From the IMG/VR virus record IMGVR_UViG_2737471834_000003: 6,514 bases of DNA. One strand, 5' to 3'. The position numbers were made by a program, and so were the translations under genes. Positions 1 to 5,589 of the stretch are shown here, piece after piece (the stretch's first letter is position 1; every line of letters starts with the position of its first letter). The notes under the pieces were generated by a model. It saw nothing but the letters and a program-made list of their open reading frames with translations. It had not been told where the DNA came from and did no database searches. This DNA comes from a virus (Duplodnaviria > Heunggongvirae > Uroviricota > Caudoviricetes).

Positions 1-291
1 GTTCTCCTGGCTGTCACGCCAGCGACTGATTTCACCGTATTTCTGATTTCTGGCCTTTTCCAGTATCTCCTCTGTCACCACAAACGGCGTGACCTCACCC
101 CAGGCCCCTGATATCAGCCCTGACCAGAGCCTTAACCCGAATTCTGTCGGGTCTGAAGCTCTGGCAGTATAAGGTACATATACCCGATGACTGTCATCAG
201 AACGGTCTGCCATGAACACCTCACAGGTAATGCTGCCGTCTTCATTAAAACGGGCATTGCGGACGTCCGCTTCTGAATTCCTGGTATCCAT
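1..291 (-). CDS. Unidentified ORF immediately downstream of the side tail fiber, 5' part only (97 codons, continues past window start); candidate tail fiber assembly/chaperone protein by position
   Basis: Hand translation of the minus strand from the ATG at 291..289 gives an open frame of 97 codons to the window edge ([41 protein letters not shown]...); the other two minus frames hit stops within ~130 nt. The ATG overlaps the stf TAA stop by one base (TAATG), with GAGGG 8 nt upstream. Absent from the ORF track because its stop lies outside the window. No similarity to lambda Tfa that I can recall; function assigned by synteny only. Confidence 0.5.
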   Translation of the reverse strand, partial: MDTRNSEADVRNARFNEDGSITCEVFMADRSDDSHRVYVPYTARASDPTEFGLRLWSGLISGAWGEVTPFVVTEEILEKARNQKYGEISRWRDSQEN

Positions 292-2012
292 TATTTCACC
301 CTCAGAAAAAGCATTTTCTCTTCAGCTTCTGCATTTCCGCAGGCCATCCATATTCCTGACTGTACCGGGTCAAGCCGCTCTCCGGCCAGTTCATCTCCGT
401 AACTTACCGCATCCTGAGAAGCACAGAACAGGTAACTCCCCACACCACCGGCTACCGGACGACCGGCAAACTGCCACCATGAAGTGGTACCCAGCCCACT
501 GTAAGCCCTGGTGAATGCCTGCCCCATACAGTTAAGGAAAATCTGACCTGAAACATTCTCATTCGTCGGAACCTGCCACATCAGACCATATGCATAATTC
601 CCCGCGGCACCCGGAACGGGGTGGTCTTCACAGGCAAGGTAGTGGTTATATTTCAGCAACGGGAACTGAAGGGCAGAATACATAAAACCATGAGCCAGAA
701 TGCCCGTGAATTTTTTCGCAGTCTTTATCCCGTCTTCCGGGTAAACTCCGCTGGGTCCCATGGGTCCCTGAGGCCCCTGTGGGCCGGTAGCTCCCCGGGC
801 ACCGGTATCACCTTTATCGCCTTTCTCACCTTTTTCTCCCTGAGGCCCGGTATCGCCCCGGTCCCCTTTCTCTCCCTTTTCACCACGGGGGCCCTGTGGG
901 CCGGTCTCCCCCTGCGGTCCGGGCTCTCCCTGTGGTCCTGGCGTTTTTGCAATCTCCCTGGCTTCCTCCAGTGCCTTCAGTGCCCCCTGCTCATGTTCAC
1001 CTGCTGTCGTGGCACTGTCTTCCGCCTGGCTGACCAGTTGCTGCACCTGCCCGGCCTGTAGCTCCACAGACTGGCTTACAGCCACAACACTGTCTGCCAC
1101 ATGCTGAACATTCAGAGCCACGGACTCCGTCTGCGCTTTTATCTGTGCACTCTCTTCTGCACGACTGGCGGCCTCTGTGGCAAAACCCTCTGCCTCATTA
1201 CGTGCCGTTACCGTCTTCTGTAAATCACTGCTTACCTGCCGTGCACTCTGTGCAGCTTCGCTGGCATGCGTCCCCGACTCCACGGCACTGGCTGAAGACT
1301 CACTGGCTGCCTGTTGTGCCTGCTCCAGCAGCCGCTCAGTATCCTGTTTATCCTGCTGAACCTGTCCGGCATTTTCTGCCATTTCTGCAGCCAGTATATT
1401 CACCTGCTGACGCTGTTCTGCCACAACCTCTGCATTTTTCTGCACCGCATCAGCAAGGGTCTGCGTATTATCTCTTGCCTGTGCAGCCTCCACAGCATAT
1501 TGTCCGGCCTCCTGCGCACTTCCGGCTGCAGACTCTGCATTTTTCTGAGACTGCACCTCATAATTCTGCGATTTCCTTTCACTTTCCCGGGCAGCGGACG
1601 CCGATTCTGCCGCTGCCGCGGCGTCTGCGCCTGTTGCCTCCTTATCACGGGTAACCTGCTCAGACAGCGTAATAACGGTATTCACCATTATCTCAAAGCG
1701 TTTCATCACCTCAGGGCGCAAATCGCCATCTTTGGGAGCATCCAGAAATGCATTCAGCGTATCCGGCTTATCCGTCGGTGTGACATAAATCTCACCGGCT
1801 TTTACCGGAGCCCACCCTTCACGGAGAAGAAAAACATCATAAAATCCTGGCTCGGCTTCGATTAAATACCGCCCGTTACTGTCCGTAATACATTCCGCCA
1901 CAATGTGCACAATCACCGTCGGACTCGTTTTTCTGGACCGCAATTCAATTGAACACGCCTGCACCGGTTTACCCGCACCGTCTTTCAGTACACCAGATAT
2001 CTGTACGGCCAT
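291..2012 (-). CDS. stf: Side tail fiber protein (lambda Stf-like N-terminal domain, Ala/Gln-rich rod, collagen-like Gly-X-Y repeats, unrecognised C-terminal domain), 573 aa
   Basis: Track ORF 291..2030 (-). Residues 7-125 of the track protein ([18 protein letters not shown]...[12 protein letters not shown]) resemble the N-terminus of lambda Stf as I recall it ([18 protein letters not shown]...RPEALRRFELMV). I place the start at ATG 2012..2010 rather than the track's TTG at 2030 because GGAG lies 6 nt upstream of the ATG and the lambda homologue begins MAV. It follows J directly, as stf does in lambdoid phages. Confidence 0.85.
747..938 (-). repeat. Collagen-like repeat: 21 uninterrupted Gly-X-Y triplets within stf, including an imperfect ~45-bp tandem duplication
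   Basis: Track residues 365-428 read [64 protein letters not shown], with glycine at every third position. On the plus strand, units beginning ggtatc at ~804 and ~849 (period 45) align at roughly 60% identity. Confidence 0.85.
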
Positions 2013-2060: not shown

Positions 2061-2090
2061 AACAATAAAAAAGGCGCCATTTCTGGCGCC
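2061..2090 (-). terminator. Rho-independent terminator-like hairpin downstream of J (minus strand)
   Basis: Minus-strand sequence GGCGCCA-GAAA-TGGCGCC (7-bp perfect GC-rich stem, GNRA-type loop; plus 2073..2090) followed directly by TTTTTTATTGTT, and sited 20 nt after the J stop. Confidence 0.7.
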
Positions 2091-2109: not shown

Positions 2110-5100
2110 TCAGCTAATCGTGATACCGGCTGTGGATTTTTTCATCACCACAACCAGCAAATCGCTGATACTTGCGGTGGGATACCAGTTATTCACCAGC
2201 CATGCTGACACCGAAAACTCCAGCGTCATGTGGCCGTGACCAGCTGGCATATCAATAACACCACTGTAAATCAGCGTATTATCCAGCGCGGTACGGTTAT
2301 AAATTTCAGCACCATTTTTCTTCACTATCAGGCGGCATGAGGAGTAAATATCAGTATGCTCTCTCTCATGCTTAGCGCCACTGAATGCCACCGCCGGAAT
2401 AACAATTTGCCGGTCAAACGGCTGATCGTCATAAACCCTGACGGTAATGGTCCCTGATGGCCACCGCTCCGGTGCCCGGGAGTCCCGGGGAAAAGCCTTA
2501 CCCACTGTTTTAACAATATCGCCTTCAATCTGGTTGGCTGACAGTTTTCCCAGAATCCGGCAGTTCTCATTTATCGTGACGTTGTTGAGTGTCCCGGAGT
2601 TCGCGTTCACGTTACCGCTGATATCCGCATTTTTCGCCGTCAGCCGCCCGTCCGGAGTCAGGGAAAACGCCGGAGGATTACCGCCACTGGTAATGGTGGG
2701 AGCCGTCAGATATTTCAGGAACACTTCATTCATGAATATCTGATCACCCTGACCAACAAACATCGGCTTTGTGTTGCCATTCGCAGGATTAACCATCGCA
2801 ATCCTGTCCGCCGCCAGCAGCACCTGACTCTGCATGCCGTCAGGGGTGTTCTCAATACCGGCACCAATACCCGCGATATAAAGGCGTCCGTCCTGCATCT
2901 GCTGCAGCTTCACAGCCCACATGCTGTTCAGGTTATTATTTGTATCAACCTGAACCTTCTGTATCTGCTGAATTGCCGCACTCTGGTCTTCCAGTTTCTT
3001 ATTGACGGTCTGCGTGATTTCATTGCTGACATCCGTAATGGACGTCCTGATTTCAGCCAGGTCAGGCGCAAGCTGACCGTTATCAATCTGCGTCCACAGC
3101 TCCTGAGCCAGATGGGTTTTCCCTATCTCGCCTTTGAAAAAATCCAGATAGCCGGATGCATCATCACTCGGCTGACCAACAGCCTCCACGAATGCCGATT
3201 TGCCAACGGTGTTCACACTGCGAACGTAAAAATAATAATCATGGCCCGGTTTGATATTGATACTGGCGGCTATCCAGTACAGCGCCGTGCCAAGATAGCG
3301 GGCTGTGGTTTCAACCTGCCTGATATCGGTAATCCGCTTTTCCGAGAACCAGAACTCAAACTGTACCGTCGGGTCATAAACGGCAAGATGCGGCGTGGCG
3401 GTTATCTGAAAATAGCCCGGCGTCAGCTCAATCCGCGACGGCACTGCAGGTGCGGCAATCCGGAACGATACCGATGCCGGATCGCCCTGCTGCCCCCACG
3501 CATTTACCGCCCGGACTGTCAGCCTGTAGTTCCCCAGCGCCAGCTGCCTGAAGCGGTATGTGGTTTCTGTCGTCCGGGCCGTGCTGACCAGCCGCTCACT
3601 GCCGTCGTCCGCTGCCACGGTCAGGCGAAGCATAAAGCTCACGCCCTTCACCACCTTCGGTGTGTCCCATCGCGCCAGCACCTGATATTCCCCGCTGTCT
3701 GCAGTGACTTCTGCGGTCAGGTGCTGCACCGCTGGCGGCGTGACACCATTCACCGTGCCACTCTGTTCGCCGTCAAAGTGCGCCCCGTTATCCACGATGG
3801 CCTCTTTTTCCGGCACATGCTGCACGGCGGTGATGGCATACGTGCCGTCGTCGTTCTCACGGATACTCACGCAGCGGAACAGGCGCTGGCGCAGCGTCGG
3901 CAGCTTCAGCCCCCATACGCTGTATTCAGCAACACCCTCAGGAACACGGCTCACTTTTACCTTCACGCCGTCGGTGACGGACTGAACCTCCACGCTGACC
4001 GGATTGCCACTTCCGTCAACCAGGCTTATCAGCGTGGTACCGGAGGATGGCAGCGTGATTTCACGGTCGAGCGTCAGCGTCCGGGTCTGGCTGTTCACCG
4101 CCAGCACACGACCACCGGTGCTGATACCGGCATAGTCATCATCGCAGATTTCAATAACATCGCCCGGTACATGGCGAAGCCCTTCTGCGCCGACGCTGAA
4201 ATCCACGGTCTGCGTCTCCAGCAGCTCCGTTTTAATCAGCCACAGCCCGGCGCGGTGTGCCTGCCCCCGGCTGGTACAGCCAAAGGCATCCATCTTCGTA
4301 ACATTACGACCGTAACGGGCAATGGCCTGCGTATCTTCAACAAGCTCTGTCGCCGTCTCCTGGCCGTTGTTCGGGTCAATCCAGTTCACCTCAACGGCAT
4401 TATGGCGGTCTTTCAGGGCGCTGAAGCTGTAGCGGAACGGCGCGCCATCATCCGGCATCACCACATTACTGCGGTTATAGGTCCACGCCTTATCCGATGG
4501 CCGGTCCTGCACGAACGTCAGCGTCTGCCCGTTCCATACCGGCATACAGCGCATCGCCGAGCAGAAATCACTGAGCACATCCCACGCCTTACGTTGTGTG
4601 GTCAGCCAGGCATTACAGGTGATGCGCGGCTCCGTGCCGCCAAAACCGTCCGGCACTGACTGGTCGCAGTACTGGCCGATGACATACAGCGCCCATTTAT
4701 CCACATCTGCCGCACCAAGACGTTTCCCCATGCCGTAGCGCGGGTGGGTCAGCATATCCCACAGACACCAGGCCGGGTTGTTGCTGTATGCCGGTTTTAA
4801 CGTTCCGTCCCAGATACCGCTGTATTGCCGCGTCTGCGGGTTATAGTTCGACGGAACCTGCAGAATACGACCACGAAAATGGTAAGTGCGGTTCACCTGC
4901 TGGCTGCCGAACTGCTCAGAATCCACCTGCACACCGACCAGTGCCGTGTTCGGGTAGCACTGTTTCACATCGATGATTTCGGTGTATGACGACCAGAGCG
5001 TTTTGTTCTGCAGCTGATCTGTGGTGCTGTCCGGCGTCATCCTGCGCATCCGGATATTGAACGGGCGCGGCGGCAGGTTACCCACCACCACCGATGCCAG

Positions 5101-5589
5101 ATACTGTGAGGTGGTTTTGCCTTTAATGGTGATGTCTTTTTCCGTCACCCAGCCACCGTTACGTTGTATCTGAACCAGCAGGCGGACTTCCGACGGATTC
5201 CGGTCCCCCTTTGAGGTGGTTTCCACCAGTGCCTGCACACCGAAGGTCAGGCGCAGACGGTCGATGTTTGCCGACGTGATGGTCCGGGTTATCGGCGTGT
5301 CGTATTTCACTTCCGCACCCAGTACCGTCTCGGAGCCGGAGGATTCAAACCCCTCCGGCGGTGTCTGCTCCTGTTCACCGGAACGGAACACCACCGTGGC
5401 ACCGGAAAAGTTGGTATTCCCCCCGCTGTCCAGTACCGGCGTACCATTCAGGCGGACACTTTTCAGCCCGTCAACCGGACCATAAACCGGTCCTTCACTG
5501 ATGGCGTCAATCACACTCAGCAACTGGGAGGATTTCAGGTTATCTCTGGCTTCACGGGGCGTATGCGCCTTACCGCCACCTTTACCCAT
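2110..5589 (-). CDS. J: Tail tip / central tail fiber host specificity protein J, 1159 aa
   Basis: Track ORF 2110..5592 (-). The protein ([34 protein letters not shown]...) is near-identical over long stretches to lambda gpJ as I recall it ([34 protein letters not shown]...), colinear for ~820 residues and then diverging. Start placed at ATG 5589..5587 (the track's first M is a GTG at 5592), with GGAGAG 3 nt upstream of that GTG. Confidence 0.97.

Follow-up and report, generated by a model that had tools for sequence, protein, structure and literature searches.

The DNA analysed here (the window) is a stretch of 6,514 nucleotides from a tailed virus. It carries a tail-tip gene block in which the product of gene J follows that of phage λ closely over most of its length and departs from it in the C-terminal third. 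The λ protein gpJ binds LamB, and the first-pass annotation of the window concluded from this departure that its J protein uses a different receptor. The locus raises the questions of which part of J determines the receptor and which receptor that is likely to be.

Gene J and its neighbourhood

The following features make up the tail-tip block, listed in order of their coordinates.

291..2012, minus strand: side-tail-fibre (Stf-like) gene, 573 aa, with Pfam phage_tail_N at aa 1-132 and collagen triple-helix repeats at aa 359-417
2073..2090, minus strand: terminator-like hairpin some 20 nt beyond the J stop, GGCGCCAGAAATGGCGCC then TTTTTTATTG
2110..5589, minus strand: gene J (central tail fibre / tip attachment protein), an open reading frame with ATG at 5589 and stop at 2110-2112, 1159 aa
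5646..6317, minus strand: tail assembly gene I, upstream of J with the gene order of λ, Pfam Lambda_tail_I
3' fragment, minus strand: K', Pfam NLPC_P60

The block K'-I-J-stf lies on one strand in the order found in λ and phage 21 (OL657228), and J holds the same K-I-J position as λ gpJ (NP_040600; PDB 8IYK, 8XCJ, 8XCK). No lom gene was found between J and stf in the window. In phage 21, too, J is directly followed by stf without lom, and a terminator is annotated at the same place, whereas lom sits between J and stf in λ, in VT1-Sakai (AP000400, an E. coli O157:H7 prophage) and in PhiR55_1.

Over its full length the J protein is 82% identical to λ J as taken from NC_001416 (945 of 1159 residues, 1938 bits), with a net gain of 27 residues (1159 aa versus 1132 aa). 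Six Pfam domains were matched well above the cut-offs, namely FNIII-A_GpJ (86-207), Phage-tail_3 (330-498), Ig_J (610-714), Ig_J_second (716-818) and, on the C-terminal side, Phage_Tail_Tip (872-1000) and Ig_GpJ_C (1029-1159), which indicates the full gpJ domain architecture. The domain order is that of λ gpJ: hub, FNIII-1, FNIII-2, helical shaft, beta-prism fibre and Ig-like receptor-binding domain (RBD); the names follow Ge and Wang 2024 (PMC11101478) and Pfam. The protein matches E. coli WP_047668139.1 exactly, and the corresponding cluster at 90% identity has 34,633 members. The J protein of the window is a λ-type tip attachment protein gpJ, in an ordinary E. coli prophage copy. An exact match of the protein shows the window to be the complete contig JUDC01000028.1 of an E. 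coli draft assembly (GCA_000798075.1). The window itself was not found verbatim in the complete-genome collection, where the best match was 96.9%.

Mosaic structure of the J protein

The comparison with λ and related phages divides J into the following parts.

3130..5589, minus strand: λ-like module, aa 1-820 (hub and two FNIII/Ig domains, ending in GYLDFFKG), delimited by identity to λ
2923..3129, minus strand: alpha-helical shaft (AHS), long variant, aa 821-889, delimited by divergence from λ and near-identity to phage 21, PhiR55_1 and VT1-Sakai
2587..2922, minus strand: central straight fibre (beta-prism), aa 890-1001, Pfam Phage_Tail_Tip aa 872-1000
2587-2769, minus strand: conserved junction block within the fibre, aa 941-1001, 88.5% identical to λ
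2113..2586, minus strand: RBD, aa 1002-1159, VT1-Sakai/1A2 class, predicted receptor OmpC, Pfam Ig_GpJ_C ('C-terminal receptor binding domain') aa 1029-1159

The N-terminal 820 residues are 95.1% identical to λ J, with 81.3% over aa 1-75 and 96.5% over aa 76-820. The motif GYLDFFKG occupies aa 813-820 in both proteins, and the first-pass annotation, which had J tracking λ J through this motif at about residue 820, placed the change correctly: the break falls exactly after it. The positions 2113-3129, singled out there as divergent, correspond exactly to J aa 821-1159. The stretch described as divergent and roughly 27 residues longer begins, in the string that was quoted, at aa 821; aa 821-889 are 17.4% identical to λ across 28 gap columns, a gain of 28 residues against the net 27 for the whole protein. 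Identity rises to 56.9% over aa 890-940 and to 88.5% over aa 941-1001, which contains the block that had been called conserved, and falls to 44.0% over the last 158 residues (aa 1002-1159), with indels in loop regions, in agreement with the statement that the last ~150 residues differ substantially. The λ sequence on which the first-pass annotation relied was accurate, and the C-terminus is clearly less conserved than aa 1-820; the conservation of the λ RBD is not found.

The sliding-window comparison of nucleotide identity, which had been proposed for locating breakpoints, gave a sharp one. Identity to λ is 91-100% over J nt 300-2250 and about 90% up to nt 2460, collapses from 89-100% to 31-38% at J nt ~2461 (window ~3129), recovers to 83% around aa 947-990 and is 46-58% in the last 160 codons. 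For phage 21 J, identity to the window runs at 91-99% as far as about aa 990 and falls to 44-59% in the RBD. In VT1-Sakai the relation is different: for most of the first 700 codons, where the J of the window is λ-like, nucleotide identity to the window is no higher than 59-86%, and from about aa 717 to the end it is 89-97%. For PhiR55_1 J the identity is 90% or higher from roughly codon 50 on. Such a step-like profile indicates mosaicism and not even drift. That lambdoid phages exchange the C-terminus of J as modules is textbook knowledge. By sequence comparison, aa 821-1159 resolve into separate recombination modules (shaft with fibre, conserved junction block, RBD) and do not read as one unit. 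The distal gpJ would have arisen through homologous recombination among three or more modules: a λ-like hub with two FNIII/Ig domains (aa 1-820), an alpha-helical shaft of the long type together with the beta-prism fibre, as in phage 21 and many E. coli prophages (aa 821-1001), and an Ig-like RBD of the VT1-Sakai / 1A2 class (aa ~1002-1159).

The long shaft accounts for the difference in length. The spacer from FFKG to MWAVK measures 69 aa in the window J as against 41 aa in λ and in phage 434 (OL657227), so that the shaft of the window is 28 aa longer than that of λ. It is 98-100% identical in phage 21, PhiR55_1 and VT1-Sakai. In phage 21 the long shaft shows 98.8% identity (79/80 aa) and the fibre 95.6% (87/91 aa); in VT1-Sakai the two parts are 97.5-97.8% identical to those of the window. 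No Pfam model was found over aa 819-871. An AlphaFold2 run on aa 813-1159 as a monomer, with an alignment of 11 sequences of near-identical homologues, placed, at low confidence, two helices (aa 814-836 and 842-891) interrupted at NGQLAP; with a mean pLDDT of 41 and a pTM of 0.35 the model was rejected as a structural basis, and its helix-break-helix pattern is weak support at most. The heptad periodicity of the long shaft is weak, with one clearly hydrophobic register (LIIKAVNV), and a canonical coiled coil is not claimed.

Both the LamB-using phage 21 and prophages of the OmpC class possess the long shaft, so it is not receptor-determining; the long helical stretch and fibre (aa 821-1001) form a module separate from the receptor determinant. 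The conserved block aa 941-1001 is the fibre/RBD junction, at which natural recombination plausibly also takes place. It is inside this block that the C-terminal parts of two engineered chimeras, 1A2 and A8, were fused to λ J, after ...KNADISG and ...NANSGTL respectively (1A2: Supplement 1 of PMC11338833).

The receptor-binding domain and its probable receptor

The RBDs of the compared J proteins fall into four classes by pairwise identity. The first includes the window, VT1-Sakai/1A2, PhiR55_1 and GXU, which are 91-97% identical to one another, the window being 94-97% identical to the other members; the second includes A8, phi330 and phage 21, at least 82% identical to one another and 61-67% to the class of the window; λ and 434 represent the third and the fourth. 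The RBD of the window is 97% identical to that of VT1-Sakai/1A2, 96% to PhiR55_1, 67-69% to phage 21, 59-64% to A8 (depending on the alignment), 44% to λ and 42% to 434. Phage 434, a classical OmpC user, has a λ-type J like that of the window, but its shaft is of the short λ type and its RBD belongs to an unrelated class. Since 434 J uses OmpC, the use of this porin is widespread among lambdoid J proteins. The RBD of phage 21 is of the A8/phi330 class (82% to A8), and its hairpins are unlike those of the window.

The first-pass annotation had proposed comparing the C-terminus with J proteins of known receptor, and the closest of these is the OmpC-assigned 1A2. The 1A2 DNA was taken from a machine-read PDF supplement of PMC11338833, with errors, and translated in patches, which left 7 of 168 positions unreadable; over the 161 readable positions of aa 992-1159 the window is identical to 1A2 at 156, and at every readable position the RBD of 1A2 equals that of VT1-Sakai J, to which the window is identical at 163 of 168 positions. 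Five differences separate the window from 1A2 (residue of the window first), all conservative: I1012V, I1025L, R1076K, K1090R and S1152A. Arginine at 1076 is the majority allele among 121 close homologues, and I1012, I1025 and S1152 are also present in the OmpC-using A8; the exchange of I for L at 1025 is probably neutral, since A8 also has I.

Of the hypervariable hairpins, which are putative porin contacts, DSRAPERW and VNNWYP are identical to those of 1A2 and VT1-Sakai, and the third reads HEREHTD in the window versus HEKEHTD in those two (R1076K). The hairpin positions were assigned by homology from contacts of phi330 predicted with AlphaFold3 (PMC12502783) and not from a structure of the window's class. 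R1076K lies in the hairpin homologous to ENFNSNNQQS of phi330, which is predicted by AlphaFold3 to enter the OmpC barrel (PMC12502783). The OmpC-dependent A8 (9wca/9wcb) and phi330 belong to the same Ig-like RBD fold family as the window and have the neck and the C-terminal strand (NNVTINENC...) in common with it; compared with A8, one hairpin of the window carries 4 inserted residues and another lacks 5. Among solved structures, aa 821-1159 match best PDB 9wca, 'A8 gpJ 713' (E = 2e-119; 1e-97 for λ gpJ). The entry 9wcb holds both A8 gpJ and an OmpC chain, which indicates direct binding of OmpC by an RBD with this fold.

The experimental evidence comes from λ gpJ chimeras, in which C-terminal parts of natural E. 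coli phage J proteins were placed on λ J (Brödel et al., Nature 2024, PMC11338833). 1A2 and A8 were picked with a lamB-deleted recipient as variants using another receptor, and their DNA delivery was assayed in a lamB/ompC double-deletion strain with plasmid-borne ompC variants (PMC11338833); the authors describe both as recognising OmpC instead of LamB (PMC11338833; bioRxiv 10.1101/2025.02.28.640725). With the OmpC of MG1655 as with that of EDL933, delivery by A8 extended to about 90% of cells, while 1A2 was efficient only on EDL933 OmpC of these two, which were characterised in detail, and poor on K-12 (MG1655) OmpC (PMC11338833). According to the authors, 21 of 23 OmpC variants were served efficiently by A8, 1A2 or both (PMC11338833). 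The text consulted for 1A2 (PMC11338833) is silent on whether this chimera can also use LamB. Among natural phages, the Stx phage phi330 (PV189401), the RBD of which is of the A8 type, forms no plaques on an ompC knockout, and plaque formation is restored by complementation (PMC12502783). The J protein of Gifsy-1, considered as a possible relative, uses OmpC, OmpX and BtuB; only 18% C-terminal identity to λ is given by the authors.

The literature search found no receptor experiments on this exact allele or on a natural phage of this exact RBD class. For PhiR55_1 and PhiR46_1 the sole mention found, the SNIPE paper (Nature 2026), gives dependence on ManYZ without naming an outer-membrane receptor. 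A receptor-prediction preprint of 2026 was set aside as a guide, as it covers gpJ of Drexlerviridae and not lambdoid J.

From the ~97% identity to the RBD of 1A2 we infer that OmpC is the best-supported receptor, and the J protein of the window probably uses OmpC rather than LamB. By analogy with the behaviour of 1A2, this use would most probably be accompanied by a preference for certain OmpC alleles. Meanwhile, 1A2 retains the short shaft and the fibre of λ itself, differing in this from the long-shafted window, so the last ~168 residues suffice for the receptor switch. The specificity is carried by only about the last 160-170 aa and not by the whole C-terminal third. The view of this third as one receptor determinant thus does not hold, as aa 821-1001 are common to the LamB-using phage 21, and 1A2 and A8 switch the receptor with λ's own stretch kept.

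The triggering mechanism can be inferred from known complexes. By analogy with the solved complexes of λ gpJ with LamB and A8 gpJ with OmpC, the trimeric RBD would dock its distal hairpin loops onto the extracellular face of the trimeric porin. In λ, the bases of the RBD spread, the beta-prism compacts and twists, the helical shaft flips, FNIII is released and the tail tip opens (PMC11101478). A similar signal may run up the fibre of the window J, through prism twist, shaft flip and FNIII release to opening of the tail tip and DNA ejection.

Lability of receptor choice and distribution of the domain

Phage 21 limits what divergence can say about the receptor. Its native receptor is LamB; with the single substitution I1025T, immediately ahead of the RBD, it gains OmpC, and with further changes OmpF as well (PMC11336670). 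Its RBD is only 46% identical to that of λ, and its putative contact hairpins hardly differ from those of the OmpC-using A8 and phi330. A phage with an RBD so far from that of λ still uses LamB, so divergence from λ alone does not imply a new receptor. The expectation of a receptor other than LamB is thus probably right in its conclusion, given the match to the RBD of 1A2, but was not justified by the divergence from which it had been drawn. Receptor choice in lambdoid J proteins is labile, and one residue can decide it; at position 1025, the one substituted in phage 21, the window and 1A2 differ (I versus L).

It is on this ground that continued use of LamB by the diverged RBD, alone or together with OmpC, has to be considered, the divergence then reflecting arms-race and recombination history. 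Phage 21 provides the precedent, with an RBD 67% identical to that of the window, and the two share the entire module of shaft and fibre at 96-99% identity. In the neck, I1012, I1025 and S1152 are the residues of phage 21 and not of 1A2, although, as noted, A8 also has all three and uses OmpC. The distal hairpins of the window, however, are unlike those of phage 21, with the 4-aa insertion (DSRAPERW), the 5-aa deletion (HE-REHTD) and VNNWYP. Apart from R1076K they are the hairpins of 1A2, and 1A2 was selected and assayed in strains deleted for lamB. Use of LamB by the window J therefore appears unlikely. It is also doubtful, if conceivable, that the combination of a phage-21-like neck (I1012, I1025, S1152) with 1A2-like hairpins carrying R1076 makes this J a natural dual user of LamB and OmpC, or gives it a range of OmpC alleles unlike that of 1A2, and that the longer shaft alters the reach of the fibre or the triggering threshold.

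The assignment of 1A2 would not be transferable if J recognised a different protein of the outer membrane (OmpF, for example, or some other porin), or if its use of OmpC were confined to alleles unlike the tested ones. Single substitutions have shifted the J proteins of λ and phage 21 between LamB, OmpC and OmpF (PMC11101478, PMC11336670), 1A2 is itself already allele-selective, being efficient on EDL933 OmpC and not on MG1655 OmpC (PMC11338833), and R1076K lies within a putative contact hairpin. Against this, four of the five conservative differences from 1A2 lie outside the three hypervariable hairpins, the fifth, R1076, is the commonest natural allele, and A8 and 1A2 between them cover most of the OmpC variants assayed, which makes such a receptor very improbable. 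That J is a relic in a defective prophage, no longer an adsorption protein and with a divergence free of functional meaning, is hardly credible: the window stands alone as a 6.5-kb contig of a draft genome, the near-identical RBD of VT1-Sakai sits in a J split by a frameshift, and E. coli genomes hold a median of 2 copies of the RBD segment and up to 12, but the frame of 1159 codons is intact with its six Pfam domains matched at full length, K, I and stf are intact within the window, and the plaque-forming phages PhiR55_1 and PhiR46_1 carry the same module.

The reading of J as a probable OmpC user concerns a very common domain. Of 5426 complete E. coli genomes, 3796 (~70%) have a megablast match to the 504-nt RBD segment, and in 3350 of these the match covers at least 80% of the segment. 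The 339-aa C-terminus is 97% identical in VT1-Sakai, PPompW prophages, PhiR55_1 and PhiR46_1. A homologue search with aa 813-1159 returned 8000 matches; among the 120 listed, 118 were 98-99% identical and the other two 96% and 90%, a set fit for allele frequencies but without depth for structure prediction or covariation.

It is established that J is mosaic, that alternative RBD classes exist and that lambdoid phages such as 434, phi330 and Gifsy-1 use OmpC, and the RBD class described here has already been exploited to retarget λ particles to OmpC. The value of the present analysis is a sharper annotation, in which the receptor determinant comprises only the last 160-170 aa of J and the longer helical stretch is separate from it and independent of the receptor. 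It also brings a caution for lambdoid phages in general: divergence from λ J alone is no predictor of a receptor change, as phage 21 still uses LamB.

Genes downstream of J

The region between J, the gene of the λ-type central tail fibre protein, and the end of the window comprises the following features:

2031-2109: intergenic spacer separating J from stf
2090-2073, minus strand: terminator-like hairpin 3' of the J stop
291-2012, minus strand: Stf-like protein of 573 aa
1-291: start of a gene downstream of the Stf-like gene; related genomes label this gene DUF4376

The lom gene is absent after J (2031-2109), and J is followed by the hairpin and directly by the side-tail-fibre gene. Phage 21 (OL657228) likewise carries its side-tail-fibre gene directly after J and a terminator, without lom, whereas λ, the VT1-Sakai prophage and phage PhiR55_1 possess lom at this position. 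In phage 21, the sitABCD iron/manganese ABC transporter operon (9815-13020) is also located downstream of the tail fibre genes; it is a cargo (moron) region with no relation to the J finding.

The Stf-like protein has phage_tail_N as its N-terminal domain, a stretch rich in Ala, Gln and Glu, and collagen Gly-X-Y repeats (aa ~359-417 and further on). The Pfam search gave no match for its C-terminal domain of ~150 aa.

Reading frame opposite J

3112-4659, plus strand: open reading frame of 515 aa, antisense to J

No support was found for this frame as a gene; most likely the GC-rich coding strand opposite gives rise to it as a side effect.

Mosaicism at the two ends of J

2113-2620: stretch of the receptor-binding domain (RBD) with micro-mosaicism
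5365-5589: J aa 1-75

From ~aa 922 to ~aa 1040, J of the E. coli GXU-23-25-310 prophage has 99-100% nucleotide identity to J of the window. Its identity is only 81-88% in the distal RBD, a part in which VT1-Sakai and PhiR55_1 reach 90-96%. The neck residues I1012, I1025 and S1152 are those of phage 21 and of the engineered λ chimera A8, not those of the chimera 1A2. The RBD is micro-mosaic. J of the Sakai Stx1 prophage (AP000400, 3548-7020) bears the 1A2-type RBD; since its annotation consists of two overlapping ORFs, 'truncated by a mutation', this copy is probably defective.

At the opposite end, the first 75 codons of J show only 79-81% nucleotide identity (81% in amino acids) with λ, in contrast to 99% identity with J of GXU-23-25-310. 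This pattern of identity marks an additional mosaic boundary close to the junction of J with the tail assembly gene I.
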